Notes: generated from the sequence alone by a model not told the origin. A stretch of DNA of 64,000 bases from Gemmatimonadota bacterium (GCA_039589115.1 JBDHHZ010000001.1:9283-73282), one strand, 5' to 3'. Shown: positions 12,736 through 63,494, counted from the first letter of the stretch. Program-made: numbers and translations.

Positions 12736-13908
12736 CTATGCCAACCGAGGTGTTTTGTTCGATCCCTCGTCGATTCTGGATCGCGCCGCTTCGCGCGCCC
12801 AACTATCGACACGATGGACGACGTCCAGCGCCGTCACTTCCTCTACCGAATGCGCGCCCAGGACCTCTCCGATGACCTCCGGTATCGCTGTGAACCGAAG
12901 TCGCTCGGCGAGGAACGCGGCAACGGCTTCCTCGCTGGCCGCATTGAATACGGCCGGCGCCGTGCCGCCGCGCAGCCCCGACTCGCGTCCCAGCTCGAAT
13001 GCCGGGAAGCGCCCGGCGGGCACCGCTTCGAAAGTAAGCGTACCTACCTCCGCTAAATCAAGGGACCGCGATTCGGTGACCAGCCGCTCGGGATAGCTCA
13101 GCGCGTGGAGCACCGGGGTCGCCATCGTCGGGTAGCCCAGCTGGGCTAGCACGGAGCCGTCCTGAAACTCCACCAGCGAGTGGACGATCGACTGTGGGTG
13201 GATGACGACCGAGACCTGCTCGTATGACAGCCCGAACAGGAAGTGCGCCTCCACAACCTCGAGCGCCTTGTTCACCAGGGTGGCCGAATCGATCGTGATC
13301 TTCGCTCCCATGTTCCAGGTCGGGTGGCGAAGCGCTTCGCCCGGCGTCACTCCTACCAGGTCTAACGGATCGCGATCCCTAAAAGGTCCCCCGGAGGCCG
13401 TCAGTACGATGCGGCGCACGGTGGCCGGATCAGCGCCCTCCAGGCACTGGAACACCGCGCTGTGCTCGCTGTCCACCGGAATCAACTCGCCGCCGTTCTC
13501 CTCCAACGCCCGCATGACCAGTGGGCCGCCGACCACCAGCGACTCCTTGTTGGCCAGCGCCAGTCGCTTGCCCGCCTCGAGCGCCGTCAGAGTGGGCTCG
13601 AGTCCCGCCGCCCCCACTAGCGCGTTGACCACGATCTCGACATCGGGGTGGCAGGCCGCCTCCAGCACAGCATCCCAACCGCTCTTCACCCTCGCCCCGC
13701 CGGCGCCGGCTGCAGTGTCGAGCGAGCCATCGGCGAGCACGGCCAGATCCGGCCGATGCCGGTCCATCTGCTCGAGCAGCGCCTCGGCGTTCCTGTGTGC
13801 CGTCAGAGCCACGACTCGGAAACGATCGGGATGGGCGGCGATCACATCCAGCGTCGTCTGACCGATCGATCCCGTCGAGCCCAGAACCGCTACGCCCCGC
13901 GCGCTCAT
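12736..13908 (-). CDS. dxr: 1-deoxy-D-xylulose-5-phosphate reductoisomerase
   Basis: MSARGVAVLGSTGSIGQTTLDV N-terminus from an internal ATG at 13908, which overlaps the cdsA stop (ATGA). The longer ORF start is an implausible arginine-rich extension. Confidence 0.9.
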   Translation of the reverse strand: MSARGVAVLGSTGSIGQTTLDVIAAHPDRFRVVALTAHRNAEALLEQMDRHRPDLAVLADGSLDTAAGAGGARVKSGWDAVLEAACHPDVEIVVNALVGAAGLEPTLTALEAGKRLALANKESLVVGGPLVMRALEENGGELIPVDSEHSAVFQCLEGADPATVRRIVLTASGGPFRDRDPLDLVGVTPGEALRHPTWNMGAKITIDSATLVNKALEVVEAHFLFGLSYEQVSVVIHPQSIVHSLVEFQDGSVLAQLGYPTMATPVLHALSYPERLVTESRSLDLAEVGTLTFEAVPAGRFPAFELGRESGLRGGTAPAVFNAASEEAVAAFLAERLRFTAIPEVIGEVLGAHSVEEVTALDVVHRVDSWAREAARSRIDEGSNKTPRLA

Positions 13909-14753
13909 CGGATACCGACCACGCTCAGGTAGACATAGGCGACCGGGAAGACGAAGAGCAACGAGTCGAGCCTGTCGAGGACGCCACCGTGACCCGGTAT
14001 CAGGTCGGAGCTGTCCTTCACCTCGCACTCACGCTTGAACCGAGATTCGAACAGGTCGCCCACCTGCCCCGCCACGGCGACGAGCACCGCGAAGCCCAGC
14101 ACTTCGAGGAGGCTCATCGTCCACGGCACCAGCGAGCGGGTGAGCTCTAGGTAGAGCACGGCGCCCGCAGCCGTCGCCAGAACCCCGCCGATCGCACCTT
14201 CCCACGTCTTCTTCGGGCTGATGACCGGCGCGAACTTATGCCGGCCGATCGCCTTCCCGGTGAAGTAGGCGGCCGTATCACCCAGCCAGGTGATGGCTAC
14301 CGGCAGAAAGACGACCGCAGTAGCAGCGAGGTGTGAAGCATCTTCCATCTCGCTCAGCCAAACGGCGAACGCGAGCATCAGCCCCGTGTACAGCGCACCG
14401 AACACGGTCGTGATGACGGCAGCGCCGGGACGCGACTCCGCCGGCCAGCGGATCGACAGCGTCGCAGCCACGACGAGCGTCACGACGACAGCCACGCTGA
14501 CGAAGTCCGCGACGGCTACGCCCTCAGCCAGCAGCACATAAAACGCCGCCAGCACGCCGGCGACTCGCGGGGCGGCCGGCACACCGTGATCGCGGTACAT
14601 GCGGCAGAACTCCCAGGCCGCCAGCGCCGCCAGGACGGCAAGGAACCCGGCCAGCCAGTAGCCGCCCAGATAGACGAGGCCTACCGCGACCGGGATGCCG
14701 ATCAGCGCCACGCCCACGCGCTTCGCGAGCTCGCCGCCGGAACGCGCCGTCAC
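13905..14753 (-). CDS. cdsA: phosphatidate cytidylyltransferase
   Basis: Multi-transmembrane protein with the CdsA C-terminal signature (SxFKRxxxxKDSSxLIPGHGGVLDRLDS). Confidence 0.88.
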   Translation of the reverse strand: MTARSGGELAKRVGVALIGIPVAVGLVYLGGYWLAGFLAVLAALAAWEFCRMYRDHGVPAAPRVAGVLAAFYVLLAEGVAVADFVSVAVVVTLVVAATLSIRWPAESRPGAAVITTVFGALYTGLMLAFAVWLSEMEDASHLAATAVVFLPVAITWLGDTAAYFTGKAIGRHKFAPVISPKKTWEGAIGGVLATAAGAVLYLELTRSLVPWTMSLLEVLGFAVLVAVAGQVGDLFESRFKRECEVKDSSDLIPGHGGVLDRLDSLLFVFPVAYVYLSVVGIR

Positions 14754-28497: not shown

Positions 28498-28770
28498 GCC
28501 GGCAGCCGCCGGAGGCTAGGCCGCAGGGGGTGGCCGTCGGCCTGCCAAATCGGCGAAACTCTTGACCTGAGCGCTCCGTACGGCTAAGCAAAGCGCTGCA
28601 GCCAGTTACTGCCGGCCCGGGATCTAGGGAGAGAACGCCGGCGCACGCCTGCGGCAGCGCCCCGACCGGTTTGGAGGTGCGATCGTGCCGCCCTCAGCGT
28701 TATGACGAATAAAGCTGTTTACTGTTGTGTATTCACTAATCGGAACCCACTCGCTAACTGGAGTTCGGTC

Positions 28771-30294
28771 ATGAAGTGGAGAGCGGTCCCCAGCGCGCTT
28801 CTCGCGTTGCTGTTCATCAGTGTAGGCACCGTAGACGCTCAGGTCGCGACCCTCACACTGGAGGAGGCGATCGAGCTGGCCAGGGCAAACAACCCCTTGT
28901 TCCTGCAGACCCTGAACGATGTGACCCCGGCCGAGTGGGGCGTGCGGGCAGCCAACGCCAACCTGTTCACGCCCAACGCCGATCTCTCGTTCGCCACGTC
29001 CTGGCAGGACGCCGGTCAGCAGCGGTTCGGTGGTTTCACGTCCGCCCAGCCCTCGGTGTTGATCTCTAACTACTCGTTCAGTTTGACCTACGCGTTGAAC
29101 GGCACGACGATCTTCCAGCCGGGTCAGCGGAGGGCGCAGCGAGACGCCGTCGAACGAAGAGTCGATAACGCCGAGCTTCAGCTCCGCAGTCAGGTGACCG
29201 CTGCCTATCTCGAGGTCCTCAGGCTGGAGGCCCGGGCGGTGCAGGCGGAGCGAGAGCTGAATCGTTCGGAGGAGCATCTGCGGCTCGCCGAGGCGCGCGA
29301 ACAAGTGGGTGCCGGGACGCGCCTGGAGTCGATGCAGGCGGATGTAGCTCGCGGCCAGGCCGAGGTCGCGATGATCGTGGCCCAGAACGCGGCCCGGGTA
29401 TCGAAGCTCCGGCTGATCCAGGCGTTAGGCGTCCAGATGCCGCAGGGGCAGATCGAGTTGGTGAGCGAGTTCGAGATTTTCGAGCCGCAACTGGATATCG
29501 AGAACTGGCTCTCGGAGGCCCTGGTGGCTCACCCGACTCTGGTGGCGGCGCGGGCCGAGCGTGCTGCGGCCAACTCGACCGTGAAGGTAGCGAAGGCGTC
29601 CTACTTCCCGACCCTCGCACTTCGAGCAAGCTGGAGCGGCTTCACGCGAGAGGAAACCGATCCGACCTTCACGATCAACAATTCGATAAACAACGCCCAA
29701 AACAACTCGACGGCGGTGGTCGGGCTCTGCAATACCTTCAACGAGCTCTACACGCGCAGCGGAGACGGCAGCGTGCCGCCCGAGTTCGGCGATTGTCAGC
29801 AGTTCGTGTTCACGCCTGAGGACTCCGCCTCCATCGATCAATCGATCAGGCGGAGCAACGCCGTCTTCCCGTTCGACTTCGCCAACGAGCCGGTCACCCT
29901 GAGCGCCTTCTTCTCTCTGCCGCTCTGGAGCGGCTTCGATCGCCAGGTACAGGTCGAGCAGGCGATCACGCTTCGCAACGACCTCGACTACGCGGTCAGG
30001 GGCCTGGAGCTGCAGATCCACGCCGACGTCACAGAGGCGGTCCACAATCTGGAGACTGCGCATCGGACGGTGCAGCTGCAGGAGGAGAACACGGCGCGGG
30101 CTCGCGAGGAGATGCGCCTGGCGCAGGAACGCTATCAATTGGGCGCCGGCACTTTTCTCGAGCTGCTGGATTCACAGACGCTAACAGCCCAAGCGGAAGT
30201 AGATCAGATCGAGGCGGTCTTCGGATTCCACCAGTCGCTGGCCGCCCTCGAGGCCGCGGTTGGCCGTCCGCTTCAGCTTTCCGGAGGGAACTAG
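28771..30294 (+). CDS. TolC-family outer-membrane efflux protein
   Basis: ATG at 28771 (MKWRAVPSALLALLFISVGTVDAQ signal peptide) and two TolC-like repeat halves. Confidence 0.8.
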   Translation: MKWRAVPSALLALLFISVGTVDAQVATLTLEEAIELARANNPLFLQTLNDVTPAEWGVRAANANLFTPNADLSFATSWQDAGQQRFGGFTSAQPSVLISNYSFSLTYALNGTTIFQPGQRRAQRDAVERRVDNAELQLRSQVTAAYLEVLRLEARAVQAERELNRSEEHLRLAEAREQVGAGTRLESMQADVARGQAEVAMIVAQNAARVSKLRLIQALGVQMPQGQIELVSEFEIFEPQLDIENWLSEALVAHPTLVAARAERAAANSTVKVAKASYFPTLALRASWSGFTREETDPTFTINNSINNAQNNSTAVVGLCNTFNELYTRSGDGSVPPEFGDCQQFVFTPEDSASIDQSIRRSNAVFPFDFANEPVTLSAFFSLPLWSGFDRQVQVEQAITLRNDLDYAVRGLELQIHADVTEAVHNLETAHRTVQLQEENTARAREEMRLAQERYQLGAGTFLELLDSQTLTAQAEVDQIEAVFGFHQSLAALEAAVGRPLQLSGGN

Positions 30295-30325
30295 GCCGAG
30301 AGATGATCGGCCGGGAGCTATAGAC

Positions 30326-31633
30326 GTGAATAGGAAGAAGTTATTCATCGGCGTCGGAGTCGCCATTGTGGTTATCGTGTTCATGACGATGGCTCTGCGA
30401 CAGGGCCGCCGGGGAGGGATCGACGTTCGCACCGAGGAGGTGCAGCGCCGCGACCTGGTTTCGGTGGTGACGGCCAGCGGGCGCATCCGACCGCACCGCA
30501 GGGTGGAGATCCAGGCCGACGTTTCGGGCCGGATCGTCGATCTGCGTATACTCGAAGGCCAGGACGTCGCCTCAGGCGACACCCTGCTGATCATCGATCA
30601 GGCCACTTACCAGGCCGCTGTGCAGCGGTCCCAGGCCGCGCTCAGCTCCTCCCAGGCCTCGGCGACACAGGCCCGGGCCAACCGGGACCAGGCGGAACAC
30701 ATGCTGACGCGCACGCGGCGCATCCTGGAGCAGAACTCCGAGCTCATCTCGGAGCAGGAGCTCGAGGCCGCCGAGACGAACTACGATGTGCAGGAAGCGC
30801 TGTACCAGGCGTCCGAGTACATGGTGGAGCAGGCACGGGCCAACGTGCGCGAGGCGATCGACCGGCTGGCCAAGACCGTGATCATCGCCCCGCTCAACGG
30901 CCGGGTGACGCGCCTGAACGTCGAGCAAGGCGAAACGGCGATCATCGGTACGATGAACAACCCGGGCACGGTGCTGCTGACCGTTGCCGATCTATCAGAG
31001 ATGGAAGCGGTCGTCGAGGTCGACGAGACCGACGTCCCGCTGATCGAGCTGGGCGACAGCGCCAGCATCGAGATCGATGCCTTCCCCGACGAGACGTTCG
31101 TCGGTCAAGTCACCGAGATCGGCCACAGCTCGATCCAGGGTGGAGCGCTGGGCTTCAGTGGAACCACCTCCGACCAGTCGGTCGATTTCGAGGTCGTAAT
31201 CCGGATCACGGTGCCGCCTGAGGGTCTACGGACCGACCTCTCCTGCACATCCGATATCGTCGCGGAAGCGCGGGACAGCGTGCTCAGCATCCCGATCATC
31301 GCCCTGGCGCTTCGCACGCCGGTGGCGGAGGAAGAGGAGGAACCGTCCGGCGACACGAGCTCCGAGGAGATCGAGCTGGTCGAGGAGGGTGATGAAGCCG
31401 AGCCCGTGGAGACCGAAGGCGTTTTCGTCGTCGGAGAGGACAACACGGTGACCTTCCGGCCGGTGACGGTGGGCGTCGCGGGACGCGAGCATTTCGAGGT
31501 GCTGGAAGGGCTGGAGGAAGGCGACCTGATCGTCTCCGGCAGTTACCAGGCCATCCGCCAGCTTCAACACGGTGACCTGGTGAAGCCGACTGGCGACGGA
31601 AGCAACCGCACAGAAGGGAACGGGACGACATAA
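30326..31633 (+). CDS. efflux transporter periplasmic adaptor subunit (HlyD/MacA family)
   Basis: GTG at 30326, a transmembrane anchor, coiled-coil region, and barrel-sandwich/beta-barrel domains. Confidence 0.8.
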
Positions 31634-54524: not shown

Positions 54525-54528
<4 letters not shown>

Positions 54529-55427
54529 TTCAGCTGCAGTCCCACCCTTTCCACAAGTTCGACATCAAGTCCGGCACGCGCGATGTGCTCCTGAAGCGGG
54601 CTCGCGTCTTCCGGCTTCTCGTAGCCGCCGGCGTACACACGATAGGCGATGCTGTCGGCTTGGCCGACGGCCGGCACCATGTAGGCCGGCACGCCCCGGC
54701 CGAACAGCGTCTCGAGCACCACCCGGGCGTCTTCCGAGCTGGAATACGTGCCGAAGCTGAAGGCCAATCGTACCGGCCTCACGTCCCAACTCCTCACCGT
54801 GTCCTTGATCTCCTCGCGAACCAGCTGAGCCATGAGCGCCTCGGCCTGTTCCCGCCCCGGCAGCATGCCGGCAAAGACGCGGTAATAGACGACGCCTCGC
54901 ACCACCGTCGGCGCAACGTAGAACGGCAAGTCGGCCCGGGTCCACTCTCGCTGGCGCGCCACAGCGTCGTCCATCGAACTGAAGGACGCAATAGCCACCG
55001 AATATGGCAGGCTCACCTCGCTGAGGCGAGGCCCCGGCGCCGCCGGCTCGTCCAGCGGACCATTCGTTGGCTGGTCCACCGGTTCGTTCGCGGTCGGAGT
55101 CTCCGCGGGGACGGCCACGGTTTCCGCGGCCGCCTCCAGCGACGTGGGATCCTCGGAAATCTGTCGGCTGCCCACCGTCCGCCACAAGACGAAGACGAGG
55201 GCGGCAGCAGCCGCCACGCCTGCCACGGGAATCACGCGCCGGCGTCTGCGCGGCCGGAACAGAGGCCCCGGAGGGGTCGTGGGCCCATCGGAGAAAGCCC
55301 CCAGCGGCGCCCGATCCGGCGTAGGAGGCGTTCGCATGGGGGCGTCGTCGGGGGTTACGGATCCAGCCGCCGGACTTGGACTCTCCTCCACTCTCGGCCC
55401 CGGGTCGCTGATCGGCCTCTTGACCAT
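54525..55427 (-). CDS. SPOR-domain protein: transmembrane anchor plus Pro-rich linker plus two SPOR repeats
   Basis: C-terminal SPOR-like repeats (YSVAIASFSSMDDAVARQ...; AYRVYAGGYEKPEDA...). The stop overlaps the smc start. The start is uncertain (candidate ATGs at 55427 and 55337); the first ~50 aa of the long ORF are arginine-rich and not protein-like. Confidence 0.55.
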
Positions 55428-56020
55428 GCCCGGTATCGGCTGCGTGTCGTCGGATGACGCGTACCACGGCAGTTCCACCGATCCGGGCTGCGGGCCTCGG
55501 CGGGCAACTCGACCTCGAGCCCTGCCGCGTTCAGCACGATGCAGGACTCGAAGCCCGGGATCGGGCCCGCCTCCAGCCAATCCTGCGCCGACACACAGGG
55601 CAAGAGACGCGCGTCGTTGTCGGGAAGTCTGGCGGCGATCTTCTTCCAGCGCGGGTGCTGATAGAGGACGTTGATCGGAGGCGACGAGCTGCCCACCGCC
55701 AGGAAGTAGAAGGTCTCCGAGTCGGGTTTGCGCGCCACGGCGGAGAAGGCGGCATCGCGGTACAGAACATCGACGATGCCCGGGCCTTCATCGATCCCCA
55801 GGGCAGCAGCGAGAGCGGATGGGGCTCTCATCTGCAGGTCGGCCAGCACTACTTTCGGATGTTGCTTTGCCAGCTTGCGGACGATCTCGATCGCGGTGCT
55901 AACCGCCCAGCGCCGCTGGCGCGGCGTCTCCGCCGCTAGCACGAGCGTCGCGGCATGCGGCCATAGTGCGTCAGTCCTCGGCGCCGAAGTATCCACGTTC
56001 ACCACCTCCCAATTTCCCAA
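55355..56020 (-). CDS. hypothetical protein with a ParA/MinD-like fold but a degenerate Walker A; the C-terminal ~45 aa look out-of-frame
   Basis: ATLVLAAETPRQRRWAVSTAIEIVRKLAKQHPKVVLADLQMRAPSALAAALGID parallels ParA KIIAVANQKGGVGKTT..NLAAALAQRGKRVLLVDLDPQGN..GLGID, but the KGGxGK[ST] motif is missing. The C-terminal tail is arginine-rich and overlaps the next ORF. Confidence 0.4.
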   Translation of the reverse strand: MGNWEVVNVDTSAPRTDALWPHAATLVLAAETPRQRRWAVSTAIEIVRKLAKQHPKVVLADLQMRAPSALAAALGIDEGPGIVDVLYRDAAFSAVARKPDSETFYFLAVGSSSPPINVLYQHPRWKKIAARLPDNDARLLPCVSAQDWLEAGPIPGFESCIVLNAAGLEVELPAEARSPDRWNCRGTRHPTTRSRYRAWSRGRSATRGREWRRVQVRRLDP

Positions 56021-56056: not shown

Positions 56057-57607
56057 TCAGGCTCCGCCGGGCCCCTCTCCCTCTTCTCCTGGCGATTCCG
56101 CAGCTGCACTATCCTCGACCTCGGACTCGGCGATGGAGAGGATCCACGGCTTGTAGCCGTATCGGGCGCTCAGCGAACGCGCCGATTCCTCACCCCGCAC
56201 GCGGTCCGGATACGGGCCGACCATGGCCCGGAACCAGGTGACGCCCATCACGTCGACGTGCCGGTCCACGGTCCCAGGATAGCCTACGCTGCGCAGCCAC
56301 CTCACCAGGTTGTCTACACCGGCCCGCTCACGCGCCGCTAGCACCACTGCGTAGTAGCCCGGTTGCGCACTAGTATCGGCCTCGGCCGACCCGAGGTCCT
56401 CGTCCGCTTCCCGCGACGCGCCGGATGCCGCCGACCCCTCCTCCGAACGATGGACCGAGCGCTGGGCCAGCTCGAGACGCGGCCGTGGCGGCTGCCACTC
56501 CACCGCCAGCCACAGCCGCCGATCCTCCGCCTCGACCCGCGAGACCTCGACTAGCCGGGACACGTCGTAGAGGACCAGATCCCCACCGTCAGCGACTATC
56601 AGCCGGCCGCCCGGCAGGGCGGCTGGCAGGTTGTCGCTCCACCCCGCATCGATGACACCCATGATCGAGTCCACACCGACGCCCAGAACGACGACTCGAT
56701 CCTCGCCATCCAACCGCGCCAGCAGGTAGGCCCCGCTCAGGCTGAAGCGCAGCGACGTTGCTACGCCCGGCAGCGCTACGCTGCGCACTCGCTCACCCCT
56801 GAGACGGTCGAACACATGCAGGCTATCACCCACCGCGACATAGATCCGGTGTCCCGACGGCGTGACCGCAACCGACCGGCCGGGCTCGGGCAACGGGAGA
56901 TCCTCCGCGTCCTCGAGGCCGGGCAAAGTGAGGCCGTGAAGAGCCAGGTCGGCCTCGTCGCCCGACAGATAGTACAGCCGCTCGCCCCATGCCGTTATCG
57001 CCAGGTCTCGTACGCCGCCGACGTCCCGTCGGCCGAGGGGCTCTTCCCGCGGCGGCTCCAGGACCAGCAGTTCGCTCCCGGAACCTGCGTCGACGACTGC
57101 GACGACGCGTCCGTCATCGGCCGCAACAAGTCGCATCAGGCGGCCACCGAGCTCGAAGTGCCAGGGCTCGGCCTCGGCCACCAGCTCTACCGCTCCCTCA
57201 CCTGCGCCGACCACCAGCCCGCTGGCATCCTCCAGAGCGACAGCGATATCCGTCGTCTCGTAGTCCTCGAAGCTCAGGAGGTGGCCTGTCGCATAGTCAT
57301 AACGCCCGATCCGCGAGTCGCTGAACTGCAGCCATACCGCATCCTCTCCCCGCCAGGCCTGCGAGATGCTCTCCAGGTCGGGTGGCGCCCAGGTCGGCGA
57401 CTCCAGCGTCTCGGCACTCCGATAGGCCAGCGGCCCACCGCTCGGCGGGAACCCGAGCAGGCCCCAGCCCTCGGCGCTTCCCAGCCAGGCGTAGCCCTCC
57501 AGCAACACTACCGGGCCGCGTTCCGACTCCTGGGAGCCGCAGGACGCCATCGCCGGCAGTGTACAGGCCAGTCCGATGAGGAATGCCGTGCGTTTCGACA
57601 GATGCAA
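56057..57607 (-). CDS. lipoprotein with a repetitive (beta-propeller-like) middle and a C-terminal SPOR domain
   Basis: TTG start; signal peptide and lipobox (LACTLPAMASCGS); C-terminal SPOR-like segment YYAVVLAARERAGVDNLVRWLRSVGYPGTVDRHVDVMGVTWFRAMVGPY. Confidence 0.6.
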   Translation of the reverse strand: MHLSKRTAFLIGLACTLPAMASCGSQESERGPVVLLEGYAWLGSAEGWGLLGFPPSGGPLAYRSAETLESPTWAPPDLESISQAWRGEDAVWLQFSDSRIGRYDYATGHLLSFEDYETTDIAVALEDASGLVVGAGEGAVELVAEAEPWHFELGGRLMRLVAADDGRVVAVVDAGSGSELLVLEPPREEPLGRRDVGGVRDLAITAWGERLYYLSGDEADLALHGLTLPGLEDAEDLPLPEPGRSVAVTPSGHRIYVAVGDSLHVFDRLRGERVRSVALPGVATSLRFSLSGAYLLARLDGEDRVVVLGVGVDSIMGVIDAGWSDNLPAALPGGRLIVADGGDLVLYDVSRLVEVSRVEAEDRRLWLAVEWQPPRPRLELAQRSVHRSEEGSAASGASREADEDLGSAEADTSAQPGYYAVVLAARERAGVDNLVRWLRSVGYPGTVDRHVDVMGVTWFRAMVGPYPDRVRGEESARSLSARYGYKPWILSIAESEVEDSAAAESPGEEGEGPGGA

Positions 57608-57793: not shown

Positions 57794-60700
57794 TCAGAAC
57801 GTCGGCCCAAAGGACACCGACCAGATGCCGCGCTTCTTGCCGGGGCGATCGAGGGGCAAGGTCCAGTCGAAGCGGAACACGTTGTAGAAGATGTTGATCC
57901 TGAGGCCCGCCCCGAACGCTGACAGCGGCGCCCGCACGTCGACTGGATCGACGCCGGGCGGTCGCGACCAGATCAGCTGGTCGAACGAGTTGAACGCCAC
58001 GCCGATGTCGTAGAAGAGAACTCCGTGTATGGGCGGCAGGCCCAGCGGCACGAATCCGAAGTCCAGGTAATTGAAGATGGGGAAGCGGAACTCGCCGCTG
58101 GCGAATGCGATGCTGCTGCCGATCAACTGGTCACGCACAGGGCAGAGCGTCGTGACCAGCTCGGCCACTTCGGCCACCGATTGGGCACACTCGGCGGCTG
58201 TGAACGAGCCCCCGTCGTAGCCTCTGAGGTAGTAGGGGCCGCCCCAATAGAGGCGGAACTGGTGCTCGCCCGGTCCCGACCGTGAATAGCTTGTCAGGCG
58301 TGTGGCGAAGGTGAACTGCCCGCCGAAGTTGAAGTAGTTTCGGAAATCGACGGTGATGTCGTTGATCTCGACGTCCCCGAAGTAGCGCCCGATCCCTACC
58401 CGGTAGCGACGGCCCGAAATGGGACCCGTGAATCCGTACAGCGAGTTGTCGAAGACTATCGCGACCGACGGACCTGCAAACACCAGATTCTCCAGCCGCA
58501 GCGTCGTGCGGTCGCTCGTACCCACCTCTCGTGTCGCGATCCTGTCCACGATGCTGTCCCGGCTGATGTAGACGCCGACAGCGGACAGCTCGATTCGTTG
58601 GAACTCGTTGAACGGGTAATGAATGTCCGTGCTCAGCGTCCTGTAGACGTCACGAATGAACCTGTCCTCGTAGAACAGTTGGTCCGTTGCGTCTAGCGAT
58701 GGGATTGTCCCCCGGAAACGGTAGAGTGGGAACTGCTGGTAGGCCATCGATACGTTGGCGCGCTCACGCATGTACGCATACTGGGTCAGGATGTAGGCAT
58801 CTTCGAACGACCCTGCGATCTGGCCCCAGAGCAACAGGTTGTGATCACCGAGGATGTCCGACATCAGGATATAGGACCCACCGTAGACGCCGCTGCCGAA
58901 GTGGCTACCTACCTGCGCACCTATTACAGGCTGGCCGATGACATCCGGCGTGAGCTTCAACTCGTAGTCGCGTTTCTCGAACTGAGCGGTATCGGGCAGC
59001 CCGCGCTGGGCGTCGGCCAGCAGCTCCGCCACCGTCAGTTCGCGCCGCGTTACGACTTCCTCGGCCGCCGGCTTCGCCGCCGACGGACGGAAGCCGCCGT
59101 CGATCCTGTAGTAAGACTGACTGCGTGCACCTGAGGCCAGGTACTGCGGCTTCTGACCTTCGCCGTCAGACACGATCTCGCTACCGTCCTCACCGTCCTC
59201 GACTTCGGCCTCAACCACCAAGACGGGCTCGGGTGGCATCTCTACGGGCCAGGCCACGGCCCGCGGGTCATCGATCACATAGATGTTGTAGCCGGCCCCC
59301 TCGAAGTAAGTGAGGGCGAGACGGTCGGCCTGGGTGGCCCACGAGATTGCCGGGCTGAGCGGCACGATCCCGGTTACCCCCGACAGGAAGTCGGTCACCT
59401 GATAGAGCCGATCCTCCGGTAGCGAATAAATGAAGACGTTGTTGACGCCGCTGCGATCGGAGACGAAGGCGATCGCGTCGCCATCCGGGGACCAGGCCGG
59501 ATTGATGTTCTTGCTCTCTCCCTGGTAGGGCAGGATCTCCACATCGCGCCGGCCCACGTTGTAGAGGGCGATACGGAAATTGCCGAAGACCAGCTCCTCG
59601 AAATCGGTGTCCGCCCCGCGATCGGTGGCCAACGCGATGTAGCGGCCGTCCGGCGACCAGGCGGGATGGAGGTCGGCATACTTGTCGTTCGTCAGCTGTT
59701 GCAGGCGACCGCCGTCCACATCGATGACGTACAGATCGCTTAAGCCGCCTTTCAGTCCGGTGAAGGCAATGCGCATCCCGTCCGGCGAGAAGGTCGGGTT
59801 CTGGATGCCGTCGAGCTCGACGACGACCTTGCGGGCGACCCGGCGCTTCGCGACCTCATAGACGTAGAGCGCGTCGCGGCCGCCAACCTGCGCCACGAAA
59901 GTCAGGTAGCGGCCGTCGTTGGACCAGGCGGCAGACGAATTGATGAAGCGCAACGACTTGAAGTCGGGCGAGCGCGCGGCCTCGATCAGCCGCGTTATGA
60001 CCTTTCCGTCTTCCGCCGACGCCAGCCAGAGGTCGAAGAACGAGTACAGCCGGTTCCCTCGATCGGAGAGGTAGACGATCTGCCGGCCGTCCGGCGCCAG
60101 CGCCGGCGCCAGGTAGGAGGCGAACTCACCTGTCCCCGGCCTGAACGAGTGACGCGTAAGCCTGCTGCCCGTCTCATCGGCGCCGGCGAACCTGGCGACT
60201 TCCGGCAGGTAAGCCGTCCGTACCGTCTCGATCCAGTCGTCGGACAGCTCCTGAACGGTCACACCCAGCGTGATCTGTACCGCGCCCTCGAGTCCGAGTC
60301 GCATCGCCCGCTGCAGCAGCAGACCGATCTTCTGGTCGCCGTATTTGGCGCCTATGAACGACCAGAGCGACTGCCCGAACCGGTAAGACAAGTAGTCGTT
60401 GTAAAGCGACATCTCCTCTATGGTCCGCAGATAGCCCGACAGCACGGCATCGCGTAGCCACGCATGCGTGTGCGTGTCGAGCCTACCGATGGCCAGGTAC
60501 TCGGCCATCCCCTCCACGAACCAGAGCGGCGGAACGTACTCGAGCGGGTTGAGCTGGCCCGTCAGGCCACGCGCGATGACGTCGTACTGAAAGGCGTGCA
60601 CCAACTCGTGCGTCAGTACGTGCTCGAAGTCGGCGTAGGAACCTGTGAACGGCAGGATGACCCGGCGCTTCGCGAACTCCGTGACGCCGCCCGTCCCCTC

Positions 60701-61054
60701 GGAGATGAAGCCCTGGAGTGCGTTCGTCTGCTGGAACTCGCTGTGTGAGGCGTAGAGGATGATCGGCTTCCGGTCATCGAACTCGTGTCCGAGGATGCGA
60801 CTCAGCCGGTTGTAGGAGCGCTCGGCCATCCGCGCGGCATCGAGCGCAGCTTCACGCTCACTCGTGTAGTAGTAGATGTCGAAGTGGGCCGTGCGCAGGA
60901 TTTGGAAATCGAAGACCTGGTGCTGAAGCTTGTTGCGGCCGAACTGAGCCTGCAGCGGCTCGGCGGTCGCGACCGGCAGCAGGACGAGGAACCACGCTAG
61001 CCGCCATGCCAATCTGAGCGGCGGGACAGCGAAGCTCTTCGCACGCTGCATCAT
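57794..61054 (-). CDS. large outer-membrane protein: signal peptide, HExxH metallopeptidase-like domain, TolB/PD40 beta-propeller repeats, Omp85-like C-terminus ending in Phe
   Basis: Signal peptide ...LLPVATAEPLQAQ; HELVHAFQYD zinc-metallopeptidase-like motif; PD40 repeats (SPDGRYIALATDRGAD, WSPDGDAIAFVSDRSGVNNVFIYSL, LAPDGRQIVYLSDRGNRLY); C-terminus ...FYNVFRFDWTLPLDRPGKKRGIWSVSFGPTF. Confidence 0.75.
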   Translation of the reverse strand: MMQRAKSFAVPPLRLAWRLAWFLVLLPVATAEPLQAQFGRNKLQHQVFDFQILRTAHFDIYYYTSEREAALDAARMAERSYNRLSRILGHEFDDRKPIILYASHSEFQQTNALQGFISEGTGGVTEFAKRRVILPFTGSYADFEHVLTHELVHAFQYDVIARGLTGQLNPLEYVPPLWFVEGMAEYLAIGRLDTHTHAWLRDAVLSGYLRTIEEMSLYNDYLSYRFGQSLWSFIGAKYGDQKIGLLLQRAMRLGLEGAVQITLGVTVQELSDDWIETVRTAYLPEVARFAGADETGSRLTRHSFRPGTGEFASYLAPALAPDGRQIVYLSDRGNRLYSFFDLWLASAEDGKVITRLIEAARSPDFKSLRFINSSAAWSNDGRYLTFVAQVGGRDALYVYEVAKRRVARKVVVELDGIQNPTFSPDGMRIAFTGLKGGLSDLYVIDVDGGRLQQLTNDKYADLHPAWSPDGRYIALATDRGADTDFEELVFGNFRIALYNVGRRDVEILPYQGESKNINPAWSPDGDAIAFVSDRSGVNNVFIYSLPEDRLYQVTDFLSGVTGIVPLSPAISWATQADRLALTYFEGAGYNIYVIDDPRAVAWPVEMPPEPVLVVEAEVEDGEDGSEIVSDGEGQKPQYLASGARSQSYYRIDGGFRPSAAKPAAEEVVTRRELTVAELLADAQRGLPDTAQFEKRDYELKLTPDVIGQPVIGAQVGSHFGSGVYGGSYILMSDILGDHNLLLWGQIAGSFEDAYILTQYAYMRERANVSMAYQQFPLYRFRGTIPSLDATDQLFYEDRFIRDVYRTLSTDIHYPFNEFQRIELSAVGVYISRDSIVDRIATREVGTSDRTTLRLENLVFAGPSVAIVFDNSLYGFTGPISGRRYRVGIGRYFGDVEINDITVDFRNYFNFGGQFTFATRLTSYSRSGPGEHQFRLYWGGPYYLRGYDGGSFTAAECAQSVAEVAELVTTLCPVRDQLIGSSIAFASGEFRFPIFNYLDFGFVPLGLPPIHGVLFYDIGVAFNSFDQLIWSRPPGVDPVDVRAPLSAFGAGLRINIFYNVFRFDWTLPLDRPGKKRGIWSVSFGPTF

Positions 61055-61452
61055 GTCGGTTCGGGCTCCTCGATGAGCATCGTCGGCGCGTCGCCCCAGA
61101 GCCGCTCCAGTTGGTAGAACTCGCGCACGACGGGGTGAAATACGTGCAAGACGAGGTCGATGTAATCTACCAGTACCCAGCGGGCGGCTCGCTCACCCTC
61201 CACACCAGACGAACGTACACCATCGCGGGCCAATCCTTCCACCACGTGTTCGGCCACGGCGCGGACATGCACTTCGGAGTCGCCGGAGGCTATGAGGAAG
61301 AAATCGGTTGCGTCGGATATCCCGCGCAGGTCGAGAACGACTAGCTCGCGCGCGTTGCGCTCCTGGCAGAGCTCTACGGCGCGCTGGACCGTCGGTGGGA
61401 GATCGGCCGGGCGCGGCACGGCACCGGAGAACGCGAACTCGGGTTTGGACAT
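61051..61452 (-). CDS. rsfS: ribosome silencing factor RsfS (Iojap-like)
   Basis: ATG at 61452 (MSKPEFAFSGAV...); core VVLDLRGISDATDFFLIASGDS...LVDYIDLVLHVFHPVVREFYQLERLW. Confidence 0.85.
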   Translation of the reverse strand: MSKPEFAFSGAVPRPADLPPTVQRAVELCQERNARELVVLDLRGISDATDFFLIASGDSEVHVRAVAEHVVEGLARDGVRSSGVEGERAARWVLVDYIDLVLHVFHPVVREFYQLERLWGDAPTMLIEEPEPT

Positions 61453-61504
61453 ATACGGCCTTAGCGAGCTCCTCACAAGCTGAACATGTTGCTCTTTCAA
61501 CACT

Positions 61505-61688: not shown

Positions 61689-63494
61689 TCACTGGGCCTG
61701 GTAGAACACCCCCCAGGCTCCAGGGCCCAGGTGTGCCGCGATGACGTTGGCGGCCGGACGGACGAGCACCTCGTCCGCGTCGAACTCGCGGCCCACGATG
61801 CCGGCCAGCTCCTCGGCCATACCTTCGCAACCCACGTGCGCCACCGCCATCCTCAAGCGCCCGGGCTCCGCTGGCAGACTCTGCCGCACCAGCTCGATGA
61901 CCTTGGGGACGAGCGCCTCACTGCCGCGCACATGGCCTGCCGGCACGAGGAAACCCTCCTCGTCCAGGCTCAGCACCGGCTTCAGATCGAGCAAGCCTCC
62001 CAGAAAGGCCTTGGCTTTGCCGACCCGTCCCGAGCGCTGCAAGTGCGTCAGCGTGTCTACCGTGATGAACAGGCCGGACCGCGGTCGGAGACGCTCGAGC
62101 TCTCCGACGATCTCCTCTATCCCACAGCCCTCTTCTGCAAGCTCGGCGGCCCGCAGCACCTGAAACCCGAGCCCGAGCGACGCGGCTCGCGAGTCGAAGA
62201 CGCGGACCACGGCGCCCTCGAAGCGGGAAGCGGCGGCCTGCGCCTGTCCCAGCGTCCCCGATAGGGCGCCCCCGACGAAGATCCCGAGGACATCACCGGC
62301 GTGCTCGGCGGCGCGCCTGTACCCTTCGATCAGCTGCGCCGGCGATGGTTGTGATGTCGTCGGCTGCGGGTGATCTGGATCGAGGAGCCGTTCGAGAAAC
62401 TCCTCGTGCGTGATGTCCACCTGATCCAAGAACGAGCGCTCGCCGAAAATCGCAGTGAGCGGCACGACCGTTATGTCGTGCTCGATGATGAGTTCCGGCG
62501 GGAGATCACATGTCGAATCGGTGACCACTGCCAGTTTACGTTTCGCCAAGCGGCGCCGGGTCTCGTGCTGAGCCCGCATGTCCTCCGCCTTCACGCATTC
62601 CACAGAGCAGCCCAACGCGGCCAACGCTCGCTCTACTTCCGCCGGCTGGTCGGTGTGTATGTGGATCTTCGCGACGGAGTGTGCGCGTGTGACGATCAGC
62701 GAGCCGCCCAGCTCCCTCACCGCCTCTTGCATGGCCCGCTGTTCGGGCGGGTCTCCGCGTACGATGAACTCCGAGCAGAAACGGAAGGCGCGGCCGCCGT
62801 CTTCCGGGAACGCCACCTCCGCCGCCACATCCCTCATCTCCAACGCGGCACCCGGAACCTGCTTCGGGCGGGTCGTGTCGCCGTCTATCAGCCCAACCAT
62901 CCCTTCGACGAAACACACGAAGCCCTTCGCGCCAGCGTCCACCACGTTCGCCTCGCGCAATACGGACAGCAGGTCGGGCGTGCGCTTCAGAGAGTCGCGC
63001 GCCGCCCCCAGCCAGCGCCGCGCCAACTCCTCGAGACCGTGTACGATGAGCGAGAAGCGTTCGACCTCTTCGGTGGCCTCTCTAACTACGGTGAGAATGG
63101 TGCCTTCGATAGGCTGATCGACGGCCTGGTAGAGGGAATTGGAGGCGCGGCGCATCGCGGTGGCCAGATCCTCCGGCCCGGCCCGGTCCCGGCCCTCGAG
63201 ACCTTCGGCGAAACCGAGGAAGTAGTGGGACAGCATCATGCCGGAGTTGCCGCGCGCACCCAGCACCCCGGCTTCGGCTATCCGCGAGGCCATCCCGGCC
63301 ACCGAACCGTCCTCGACTCCATCAACTGCGTCCGCGATCGCGCGCAGCGTCAAGGCGAGGTTGGTGCCGGTGTCGCCGTCAGGAACTGGGAAGACGTTGA
63401 TGCGATCGAGCTCGTCGCGGTGCTCGTAGACGCGCTCCGAGCCCGCCAGAAACAGGCGTTTGAGGCGCCGCCCGTCGCAGTACGCGATACCCAG
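61689..63494 (-). CDS. DAK2 (DhaL-like) domain fused to a DegV-like domain (FakA/YloV-like fatty-acid kinase family); the start codon is non-canonical or unresolved
   Basis: N-terminal DAK2 motifs (DELDRINVFPVPDGDTGTNLAL, GARGNSGMMLSHYF) and C-terminal DegV motifs (KLAVVTDSTCDLP, TSQPSP). The conserved DGDTGTN segment lies upstream of the first in-frame ATG/GTG/TTG (the TTG at 63353). The frame is open back to the rplI stop region. Confidence 0.65.
   Translation of the reverse strand: MGIAYCDGRRLKRLFLAGSERVYEHRDELDRINVFPVPDGDTGTNLALTLRAIADAVDGVEDGSVAGMASRIAEAGVLGARGNSGMMLSHYFLGFAEGLEGRDRAGPEDLATAMRRASNSLYQAVDQPIEGTILTVVREATEEVERFSLIVHGLEELARRWLGAARDSLKRTPDLLSVLREANVVDAGAKGFVCFVEGMVGLIDGDTTRPKQVPGAALEMRDVAAEVAFPEDGGRAFRFCSEFIVRGDPPEQRAMQEAVRELGGSLIVTRAHSVAKIHIHTDQPAEVERALAALGCSVECVKAEDMRAQHETRRRLAKRKLAVVTDSTCDLPPELIIEHDITVVPLTAIFGERSFLDQVDITHEEFLERLLDPDHPQPTTSQPSPAQLIEGYRRAAEHAGDVLGIFVGGALSGTLGQAQAAASRFEGAVVRVFDSRAASLGLGFQVLRAAELAEEGCGIEEIVGELERLRPRSGLFITVDTLTHLQRSGRVGKAKAFLGGLLDLKPVLSLDEEGFLVPAGHVRGSEALVPKVIELVRQSLPAEPGRLRMAVAHVGCEGMAEELAGIVGREFDADEVLVRPAANVIAAHLGPGAWGVFYQAQ

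Follow-up and report, generated by a model that had tools for sequence, protein, structure and literature searches.

The gene at positions 57794..61054 of the window, the 64,000-nucleotide stretch of Gemmatimonadota DNA analysed here, encodes a protein with a signal peptide, a gluzincin-type zinc-peptidase domain, a six-bladed TolB-type PD40 propeller, a flexible linker, and a C-terminal 16-strand barrel of the BamA/TamA type. This protein is a member of the known but uncharacterised WD40-Omp85 subfamily, and its N-terminal domain has all the parts of a gluzincin, apparently one with catalytic competence. We consider the chances about even that the protein works as an outer-membrane-anchored periplasmic zinc protease, gated by its propeller, in envelope-protein quality control.

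Gene and domain organization

The open reading frame outlined in the initial annotation, which gave no strand, lies on the minus strand and runs uninterrupted from ATG to stop. Its start ATG overlaps the stop codon of the upstream rsfS gene (ACATGATG). The gene and its product are organized as follows, with all features on the minus strand:

57794..61054, minus: whole gene, WD40-Omp85 subfamily protein, 1086 aa plus stop, ATG start
61051..61503, minus: rsfS (ribosome silencing factor), upstream gene (Pfam RsfS, E 8e-29)
56057..57607, minus: downstream gene, 516-aa protein with a C-terminal SPOR domain (Pfam SPOR, E 2e-5), a neighbour conserved within Gemmatimonadota
60947..61054, minus: Sec (SPase I) signal peptide, aa 1–36, from sequence and predicted helix 13–29
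60905..60946, minus: invariant motif QFGRNKLQHQVFDF at the mature N-terminus (family consensus Q-Y-F-G-R-N-K-V-Q-Y-x-x-F-D-F)
60170..60904, minus: gluzincin-fold zinc-peptidase domain, aa 51–295
60596..60610, minus: HELVH, with predicted zinc ligands H149 and H153 and predicted general base E150
60500..60514, minus: EGMAE, with E181 as predicted third zinc ligand
59255..60169, minus: six-bladed PD40/TolB-type β-propeller, aa 296–600
59117..59254, minus: disordered linker rich in acidic residues, Pro, and Ala, aa 601–646 (46 aa)
58928..59116, minus: small α/β module ahead of the barrel, aa 647–709, from predicted secondary structure
57797..58927, minus: 16-strand Omp85 β-barrel, aa 710–1086

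An AlphaFold2 model of the full-length protein has a pLDDT of 83.5 and a pTM of 0.80. The gene has a GC3 of 0.83, on par with adjacent genes, and its codon GC3 is uniform. A neighbouring gene shows an apparent frameshift, so the assembly is not error-free.

Such a frameshift, together with the unusual length of the reading frame, could point to a chimera generated by misassembly or to read-through of separate peptidase, TolB-like, and Omp85 genes, an explanation to which we attach almost no probability. More than 100 full-length, colinear homologues of ~1080 aa (47–76% identity, 97–100% of the query length) come from assemblies made independently of one another, a 4.7-Mb complete genome among them, and all three parts are found in 89 of 91 long representatives. 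On these grounds, an assembly chimera was rejected; the even GC3 and the pTM of the whole-chain model argue against it as well.

The architecture matches the WD40-Omp85 subfamily

The initial annotation regarded this fusion as unusual and did not recognise the architecture as a named family, but Heinz and Lithgow catalogued it in 2014 as the WD40-Omp85, or 'WD40-like', group, among the ten subfamilies that they defined in Omp85/TpsB (PMC4104836). The protein displays every feature listed for this group, with PD40 repeats (PF07676) preceding the barrel (PF01103), a non-POTRA N-terminal region, and an aminopeptidase-like region ahead of the propeller, and the architecture is identical; the Gemmatimonadota clade adds a disordered linker of 32–123 aa. 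For the members, Table S3 of that study lists hits to TolB and to BamA/TamA as well as a 'best aminopeptidase hit', with M1 aminopeptidase and collagenase templates at ≥99% for Caldithrix, Rhodothermus, Sorangium, Anaeromyxobacter, Vibrio, and other members. The discussion there concerned the propeller only and did not assess catalytic residues. A later account restates the subfamily as having 'WD40 and peptidase domains' (PMC11358297), and such proteins were named 'OMP-TolB-like' in a 2025 study in Mol Biol Evol (PMC12204202).

Gemmatimonadota (searched as 'Gemmatimon') were not found in the text or supplementary files of PMC4104836 that were searched. Our literature searches for a characterised WD40-Omp85 member returned catalogue- or classification-level mentions only, and the TamL paper does not mention the subfamily. 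We also considered the 'Metallo' Omp85 subfamily of Heinz and Lithgow and rejected it because it is defined by PF00149, a different domain.

The N-terminal domain looks like a complete gluzincin

Residues 51–295 have a thermolysin-like catalytic fold, with the M9, M30, and M1 peptidases as closest folds; an AlphaFold2 model of the N-terminal domain alone has a pLDDT of 86.5. The link to peptidases emerged from a profile and a model of the domain alone, whereas full-length PDB searches gave none. Specifically, the HELVHAFQYD stretch (res. 149–158) singled out in the initial annotation begins with HELVH, which sits inside a predicted helix (res. 140–164), in the position of the HExxH motif on the active-site helix of gluzincins (clan MA(E)), and aligns with the HExxH of PDB entries 7wss and 4kx7. 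The predicted third zinc ligand, which the initial annotation proposed to look for, is E181, located 28 residues after H153 on helix 177–189 in the sequence W-F-x-E-G-M-A-E-Y. E181 is invariant and aligns with the zinc-binding Glu of the M1 sequence 'WLNEGFA' (4kx7) and with the equivalent Glu in 'WWSEGVAEY' of an M9 collagenase (7wss); E185 is nearly invariant, and Tyr224 is a candidate catalytic residue.

HELVH is kept unchanged by 88/88 Gemmatimonadota homologues and by 26/26 diverse sequences. H149, E150, H153, E181, and Y224 are likewise preserved without exception in these 88 homologues and in the 26 diverse sequences, down to 38% identity, and HE[LM]VH is present in all paralogues and distant members checked. 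The mean identity of the peptidase domain (68%) exceeds that of the propeller (59%) and the barrel (51%), as does its share of invariant columns (22% versus 9% and 12%, respectively). The Pfam Peptidase_MA_2 profile (PF13485) is matched over nearly its whole length (profile positions 18–199 of 201, E 1.8e-7) and scores 31.6 bits, just under its gathering cutoff of 32.4. Some homologues carry a precomputed PF13485 match. Membership in Peptidase M9 (collagenase, PF01752) was rejected at 17.3 bits against a cutoff of 26, leaving that family a relative by fold only. The initial reading of a metallopeptidase-like head is correct, and the fold gives no sign of being a non-catalytic one.

Signal peptide and invariant N-terminal motif

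The signal peptide recognised in the initial annotation (MMQRAKSF...LVLLPVATAEPLQA, followed by Q) contains the predicted helix (res. 13–29) and a predicted cleavage site between LQA and Q. It lacks a lipobox Cys and is unconserved across homologues (26% identity). The motif at the mature N-terminus is, by contrast, the most conserved segment of the protein: its F, G, and N are identical in 248/248 family members carrying the motif, in which it starts at a median residue of 28. In both the full-length and the N-terminal-domain AlphaFold2 models, the motif has low to medium pLDDT.

Propeller, linker, and pre-barrel module

The PD40/TolB repeats reported initially resolve into five Pfam PD40 stretches (E 3e-30) with a partial TolB match (E 1.5e-34), and TolB is the best PDB match by sequence and by fold. 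The linker that follows has a pLDDT <50 for residues 608–645, and in Gemmatimonadota homologues it retains 13% identity and varies in length from 32 to 123 aa. A long linker is largely absent in the wider family, where most members have ~37 residues between propeller and barrel. The small α/β module ahead of the barrel is not recognisable as POTRA; scanned alone, it returned no Pfam match at E ≤ 10, and POTRA (PF07244) was matched neither in the full-length Pfam scan nor for residues 645–739 at E ≤ 10.

The C-terminal barrel

AlphaFold2 predicts 16 strands for residues 710–1086, the strand number that the initial annotation had put forward for verification, and Pfam Omp85 (PF01103) matches with 37.9 bits against a cutoff of 24. 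This match went unreported in the full-length Pfam scan and was recovered by scanning the barrel alone. Loop 6 (res. 927–980) contains R944-G945-Y946 and an invariant pair, C956/C971, and strand 13 carries F1014-x-D1016-x-G1018, so that the BamA-type loop-6 (V)RG(Y/F) and strand-13 FxDxG motifs are both present, with R944-G945-Y946 and F1014/D1016/G1018 conserved. The chain ends in ...IWSVSFGPTF, with the terminal Phe already noted, and its last residues, G1083-P-T-F1086, form a G-x-x-aromatic signature. The C-terminus is indeed an Omp85-type barrel, which resembles BamA, Sam50, and TamA more than the translocators FhaC and CdiB. When the PDB was searched with the full-length protein by sequence and by profile, only TolB-type propellers and a marginal BamA match (E 0.016) were retrieved.

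The order of an enzyme, a linker, a small module, and a 16-strand Omp85-type barrel matches that of PlpD, which bears a patatin domain (PMC4104836), and raises the question of type Vd-like self-export, in which the barrel would translocate its own peptidase-propeller passenger to the cell surface, as PlpD does with its patatin domain, and so give rise to a protease, surface-bound or released, that would acquire nutrients or remodel the surface. The disordered Gemmatimonadota linker, rich in Ala, Pro, and Gly and 32–123 aa in length, would suit such a passenger, as would the secreted M9 and M30 proteases being the closest folds to the peptidase domain and a head without Cys in 59/88 homologues. 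We nevertheless judge self-export distinctly unlikely. Pfam scans detected no POTRA domain, the long linker is specific to one clade and gives way to ~37 residues in most members, and the barrel is nearer BamA, Sam50, and TamA than FhaC and CdiB; in addition, the gene belongs to the core set and keeps a fixed housekeeping synteny, unlike a patchy accessory gene. A 300-aa six-bladed propeller is not known as a type V passenger.

Distribution and gene neighbourhood

The N-terminal domain populates ~3,500 clusters at 50% identity. Among its 150 best hits, the three-part architecture is essentially its sole setting, and the carriers are Gemmatimonadota, Rhodothermales-type Bacteroidota, Calditrichia, Latescibacterota, Eisenbacteria, and Acidobacteriota. 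Within these best 150 representatives, 91 are ≥900 aa long, of which all 91 contain the propeller and 89 the barrel. Among these representatives, the peptidase-propeller-barrel fusion is essentially obligate.

Gene order in Gemmatimonadota is fixed down to ~38% identity as S6-S18-DUF2232-L9-(FakA/DegV)-RsfS-[gene]-SPOR-SMC, with one or two SPOR-domain genes and then smc downstream. It belongs to the core genes of this phylum, its neighbours do not change, and it has housekeeping character. Outside Gemmatimonadota, clustering the flanking ORFs of 22 loci revealed no neighbour common across clades, so synteny-based functional inference is valid only within the phylum. Neither tol-pal nor bam genes are adjacent to the target gene, which is flanked by rsfS, fakA/degV, and L9 on one side and by SPOR-domain genes and smc on the other.

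SPOR domains bind septal peptidoglycan, and TolB carries its TolA-binding box at the N-terminus, where the protein described here has its invariant, poorly ordered motif. These parallels, along with the BamA-type functional motifs kept in the barrel, could fit a non-proteolytic envelope scaffold, with the propeller and perhaps the peptidase-like domain serving as a binding platform. Such a scaffold might be a BamA-BamB-like fusion that supports outer-membrane protein (OMP) assembly or, in the manner of a TolB ancestor, an outer-membrane link to peptidoglycan, Pal, or the septum in division; OMP-TolB-like proteins have been proposed to be the ancestors of TolB and may take part in remodelling septal peptidoglycan (PMC12204202). 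We view a scaffold without proteolysis as unlikely. The zinc-binding and catalytic residues all stay the same from phylum to phylum, and no globular domain of the protein is as well conserved as the peptidase domain, which would not be expected of a mere binding module. Moreover, the protein scores far below the TolB equivalog cutoff, TolB's N-terminal α/β domain is missing, no tol-pal genes are adjacent, and the SPOR/SMC synteny is limited to one phylum.

A proposed role in envelope-protein quality control

In the model we favour, with about equal chances of being right or wrong, the barrel would be anchored in the outer membrane and hold the peptidase-propeller head in the periplasm. A periplasmic head is preferred because Omp85 chains enter the first barrel strand from the periplasm, and periplasmic N-terminal domains are the default Omp85 topology (PMC4104836; PMC11358297). 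The ~37 residues that connect propeller and barrel in most members point the same way, since they leave little chain to thread a barrel. Two observations weigh on the other side: PlpD has an N-terminal enzyme on an Omp85-type barrel that can be exported (PMC4104836), and the Cys-free head of 59 of 88 homologues is also typical of type V passengers. Of the two functions suggested in the initial annotation, a BamA/TamA-like assembly factor with an enzymatic head and a surface-exposed protease, the latter seems less likely because of this default periplasmic placement of Omp85 N-terminal domains.

Within the periplasm, the head would function as an active zinc endopeptidase, and the adjoining propeller may restrict or recruit substrates, as in the propeller-gated S9 family and tricorn. 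Its most likely job would be to process envelope proteins at the outer membrane or to control their quality there, making it a one-polypeptide analogue of BepA, the periplasmic Zn-protease that docks on BAM. BepA provides the precedent for a Zn-protease at an Omp85 machine (PMC8423444; PMC13478230). The Peptidase_MA_2 score just below the curated cutoff and a gene context that shows no protease-substrate or BAM link speak against this model.

A more elaborate version, which we regard as a long shot, would make the protein both a self-contained OMP quality-control machine and an extant relative of the TolB ancestor. The lateral gate of the barrel would capture stalled or misfolded β-barrel substrates and feed them to the protein's own propeller-gated zinc protease, uniting BAM and BepA in one polypeptide, and the N-terminal Q-Y-F-G-R-N-K-V-Q-Y motif would act as a TolA-box or TonB-box toward an inner-membrane force transducer, or as an autoinhibitory plug.

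Comparison with known systems

Omp85 proteins build the outer membrane, and two of them, BamA and TamA, have drawn intensive study and serve as antibiotic targets. The protein described here has an enzymatic head in place of the POTRA domains of BamA and TamA (five in proteobacterial BamA), and its similarity to solved BamA structures is marginal. Membership in BamA was rejected because POTRA is missing and the N-terminal region consists of peptidase and propeller. PlpD (type Vd; patatin-like Omp85 subfamily) likewise combines an N-terminal enzyme and an Omp85-type 16-strand barrel in one polypeptide, but it has a patatin lipase passenger and POTRA, whereas the present protein has a gluzincin and a propeller, with no patatin or POTRA match in Pfam scans.

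The 'OMP-TolB-like' or 'FhaC-TolB-like' proteins (PMC12204202) share the outer-membrane barrel and a six-bladed TolB-like propeller that is presumably periplasmic here too. In those proteins, a Rossmann-like domain sits beside the propeller instead of a gluzincin peptidase, and FhaC is more distant from the barrel described here than BamA, Sam50, and TamA are. OMP-TolB-like proteins are widespread, and automatic annotation often labels them TolB (PMC12204202). Our protein itself carries the JGI name 'Tol biopolymer transport system component'. Assignment to TolB (TIGR02800 equivalog) was rejected on a score of 119.6 bits against 343, confined to the propeller part, on the missing N-terminal domain, and on the lack of an adjacent tol-pal cluster; to annotate this protein as 'TolB' or as 'Tol biopolymer transport system component' is misleading.

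The peptidase domain shares 10–16% identity with M9 (collagenases), M30 (hyicolysin/lugdulysin), and M1 (aminopeptidase N, tricorn factor F3). With neither the activator and accessory domains of M9 nor the N-terminal β-domain and GAMEN motif of M1, with this low identity, and with the sub-cutoff M9 score, it counts as a separate gluzincin family. The propeller-gated peptidases of the S9 family and tricorn are serine enzymes, whereas this would be a metallo enzyme. The likeness to BepA, a periplasmic HExxH protease at an Omp85 machine in OMP quality control (PMC8423444; PMC13478230), is a functional analogy only: BepA belongs to the unrelated M48 family, is a separate soluble protein, and has TPR repeats instead of a propeller, and no homology was detected.

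To the published descriptions of the WD40-Omp85 subfamily, our analysis adds a seemingly complete and competent gluzincin with active-site residues invariant across phyla, a peptidase type that, among its best matches, is found essentially only fused to a propeller and a barrel, and a core gene in Gemmatimonadota with fixed neighbours that include SPOR-domain genes and smc. Should the head prove to be an active protease in the periplasm, the family would offer a second way of assisting outer-membrane quality control by proteolysis, here in fused form, and would also be relevant to the recently proposed descent of TolB from such barrel-propeller proteins (PMC12204202).

Gene identity and conserved neighborhood

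The WD40-Omp85 protein is encoded by an open reading frame whose third-position GC (0.83) equals that of the neighboring genes:

57794–61054, minus strand: open reading frame from ATG to stop, 1086 amino acids

More than 100 homologs of ~1080 residues align at 47–76% identity across 97–100% of the query length, and a complete 4.7-Mb Gemmatimonadota genome carries one full-length homolog. On these grounds, we rejected an assembly chimera, and an assembly artifact is exceedingly improbable. The ATG shares nucleotides with the TGA that terminates rsfS, the upstream ribosome silencing factor gene (ACATGATG, window 61051–61054), which suggests co-transcription and translational coupling of the two genes, whose adjacency is kept across Gemmatimonadota. 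In this phylum, the gene is a core gene and occupies a fixed block, S6-S18-DUF2232-L9-(FakA/DegV)-RsfS-(WD40-Omp85)-SPOR protein(s)-SMC, conserved to ~38% identity.

At window 61689–63353 (minus strand), a single 554-residue protein is encoded in which Dak2 and FakA-like middle domains are joined to a DegV (FakB-like) domain. The two fatty-acid kinase subunits, which Firmicutes make as two polypeptides, seem to be fused here, and the fusion is kept in L001, a homologous locus from another genome, and in many Gemmatimonadota loci. The second gene downstream (window 54525–56020, minus strand) appears frameshifted around 55484–55490. Its L001 ortholog is a single 490-residue reading frame (12924–14396) with a C-terminal SPOR domain; relative to this ortholog, residues 1–169 lie in frame −1 (55996–55490), residues 186–490 lie in frame −3 (55484–54528), and ~16 codons are missing. 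The break reflects an assembly error, an indel, or the decay of a pseudogene. Outside this region, the window is ordinary chromosome, with a TolC-like OEP and HlyD-type adaptor (28702–31633, plus strand) that probably serve efflux or type I export, and genes for UvrD, a GatA-like amidase, DnaX, Dxr, CinA, and a ComM/Mg-chelatase-like ATPase. A sample of ten large window ORFs yielded no gene for BamA, Tol-Pal, or BepA.

Domain organization

A full-length AlphaFold2 model, built on an 88-sequence alignment, is confident (pLDDT 83.5, pTM 0.80). The initial annotation had read the domains correctly, as a metallopeptidase-like domain, a propeller, and a barrel; the parts, in order, are:

Residues 1–36: Sec type I signal peptide, predicted cleavage between LQA and Q
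Residues 37–50 (window 60905–60946, minus strand): N-terminal motif QFGRNKLQHQVFDF
Residues 51–295: peptidase domain, mixed α/β plus helical
Residues 296–600: propeller with six blades
Residues 601–646 (window 59117–59254, minus strand): disordered, unconserved linker
Residues 647–709: β-β-α-β module
Residues 710–1086: barrel with 16 strands (AlphaFold2)

The signal peptide contains no Cys and therefore no lipobox. The Gln at +1 after the predicted cleavage site is consistent with the pyroglutamate ‘Q-rule’ of Bacteroidetes. The N-terminal motif, which starts at a median residue 28 in the family, immediately past the signal peptide, is more highly conserved than any other part of the protein. 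Its family consensus is Q-(Y)-F-G-R-N-K-V-Q-Y-x-x-F-D-F, with F, G, and N identical in 248/248 family members having the motif. AlphaFold2 models it with low to medium confidence. Possible roles are those of a TolA-box or TonB-box analog or of an active-site plug.

An intact predicted zinc site in the peptidase domain

The HELVHAFQYD string of the initial annotation lies at residues 149–158. In a profile built from 26 sequences, HELVH aligns with HEYVH of an M9 collagenase (PDB 7wss) and HELVH of human aminopeptidase A (M1, PDB 4kx7), and L-W-F-x-E-G-M-A-E-Y aligns with ‘VWWSEGVAEY’ (M9) and ‘LWLNEGFASF’ (M1). Because the Glu of ‘LWLNEGFASF’ is the third zinc ligand in M1 enzymes, the aligned, invariant E181 is the predicted third ligand here. 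It lies 28 residues after H153, the spacing seen in ColG (H527/E555). The Tyr of Y-R-F-G, which aligns with M9 Y-R-W-G, makes Y224 a candidate transition-state residue. The predicted zinc site is intact: H149, E150, H153, and E181, together with Y224, are invariant in 88/88 Gemmatimonadota homologs and likewise in a set of 26 diverse sequences whose identity falls as low as 38%. The match to Pfam Peptidase_MA_2 falls slightly below the cutoff (31.6 versus 32.4 bits); we rejected M9 membership since the protein scores under the Pfam M9 cutoff.

The peptidase domain is the best-conserved globular domain (mean identity 68%, 22% invariant columns), compared with the propeller (59%, 9%) and barrel (51%, 12%). 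This ranking supports catalysis, as does the lack of variation between phyla at every catalytic position. A scaffold that acts without proteolysis, in the manner of TolB or BamB, is in line with published suggestions and with the SPOR and SMC neighbors but is unlikely given such an invariant active site.

Propeller, linker, and barrel

Pfam PD40 matches the propeller in five stretches (E 3e-30). TolB identity was rejected because the equivalog score of 119.6 bits is far under the cutoff of 343 and both the TolB N-terminal domain and the tol-pal context are absent. The linker that follows measures 32–123 residues in Gemmatimonadota homologs and is Ala/Pro/Gly-rich. Most of the other family members have a propeller-to-barrel segment shorter by ~47 residues, which makes the long tether specific to the Gemmatimonadota clade. 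The β-β-α-β module ahead of the barrel had no Pfam or POTRA match in a Pfam scan.

The predicted 16 strands agree with the barrel proposed initially, and the quoted C-terminal string is present, the protein ending in ...IWSVSFGPTF. A long loop joins strands 11 and 12. It carries two invariant features: R944-G945-Y946, which corresponds to the Omp85 loop-6 VRGY/F motif, and the pair Cys956/Cys971. Strand 13 contains F1014-x-D1016-x-G1018, and the C-terminal end reads G1083-x-x-F1086. The isolated barrel matches Pfam Omp85 (PF01103; E 1.9e-9, 37.9 bits); with the full-length protein as query, hmmscan gave no hit to this family even at E ≤ 1. Likewise, P0001, the closest database entry (100% identity as shown), lacks a precomputed PF01103 match, and 75%-identical homologs have it. 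The barrel can thus go unseen in full-length Pfam scans.

The domain order, a Cys-free head (peptidase domain and propeller), and the long Gemmatimonadota linker would suit a PlpD-like mechanism that exports the head to the cell surface. We consider such export rather improbable, as the propeller-barrel connection is short in most of the family, POTRA domains are absent, the barrel resembles BamA and not TpsB, and the synteny is of a housekeeping type.

Distribution

A search with the N-terminal domain across 1.84 billion representatives returned 3,469 clusters at E ≤ 1e-3 and 798 at E ≤ 1e-30. Among the best 150 representatives, 91 have at least 900 residues, with the propeller in 91/91 and the barrel in 89/91; the shorter ones look like fragments. 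In this sense the fusion is obligate: these top matches place the peptidase type almost exclusively in the three-part architecture.

A one-genome-per-species scan confirmed at least 504 loci. Gemmatimonadota form the majority of the best 80, which also include Latescibacterota, Eisenbacteria, Rhodothermaceae/Salinivenus/Longimonas, Calditrichia, and Acidobacteriota. A distant clade (33–37% identity) has the same architecture and lacks the rsfS/SPOR/smc context; comparison of flanking genes revealed no common neighbor among its loci. Some belong to bins labeled Gemmatimonadaceae/Gemmatimonadota (L034, L037, L042, L046, L049, L057, L069, L074) and may represent a second paralog within the phylum or mis-binned contigs. 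Some Eisenbacteria-type loci, as well as one ‘Bacteroidota’ bin, have a further, shorter paralog of ~940 residues with the same peptidase-propeller-barrel order and an HE[ML]VH motif. Its position ~4 kb upstream of the principal copy indicates lineage-specific duplication:

L029, 824–3685: second paralog
L044, 894–3701: second paralog
L033, 841–3654: second paralog

Proposed function and relation to known systems

Although initially described as unnamed, the architecture is that of ‘WD40-Omp85’ (‘WD40-like’), one of ten subfamilies of the Omp85/TpsB superfamily, its defining mark being PF07676 repeats N-terminal to a PF01103 barrel (Heinz and Lithgow 2014, PMC4104836). The protein has every defining feature and is a new Gemmatimonadota member of this catalogued, functionally unexplored subfamily; literature searches turned up no member that had been studied experimentally. 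In Table S3 of that study, the ‘best aminopeptidase hit’ column gives M1 aminopeptidase and collagenase templates at ≥99% for WD40-Omp85 members (PMC4104836), and a 2024 summary mentions ‘divergent WD40 and peptidase domains’ (PMC11358297). A 2025 paper proposed ‘OMP-TolB-like’ proteins as TolB ancestors, with a possible ancestral role in septal peptidoglycan remodeling (PMC12204202). We rejected identity with BamA, because POTRA domains are missing, and with PlpD, because both patatin and POTRA domains are missing.

From the default Omp85 topology, the barrel would anchor the head at the outer membrane, facing the periplasm. There, the head may act as an active zinc endopeptidase, with the adjoining propeller filtering or recruiting substrates, as in S9 peptidases and tricorn. 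We give about even weight to an outer-membrane-anchored, propeller-filtered periplasmic zinc endopeptidase, whose likeliest role would be envelope-protein processing or quality control; functions outside the readings considered take up the remaining probability. Points that merit further study are head topology, substrates, what the invariant N-terminal motif does, and how the protein relates to TolB. The proposed endopeptidase finds a functional parallel in BepA, an M48 protease that docks on BAM (PMC8423444, PMC13478230), but the two proteins are unrelated.
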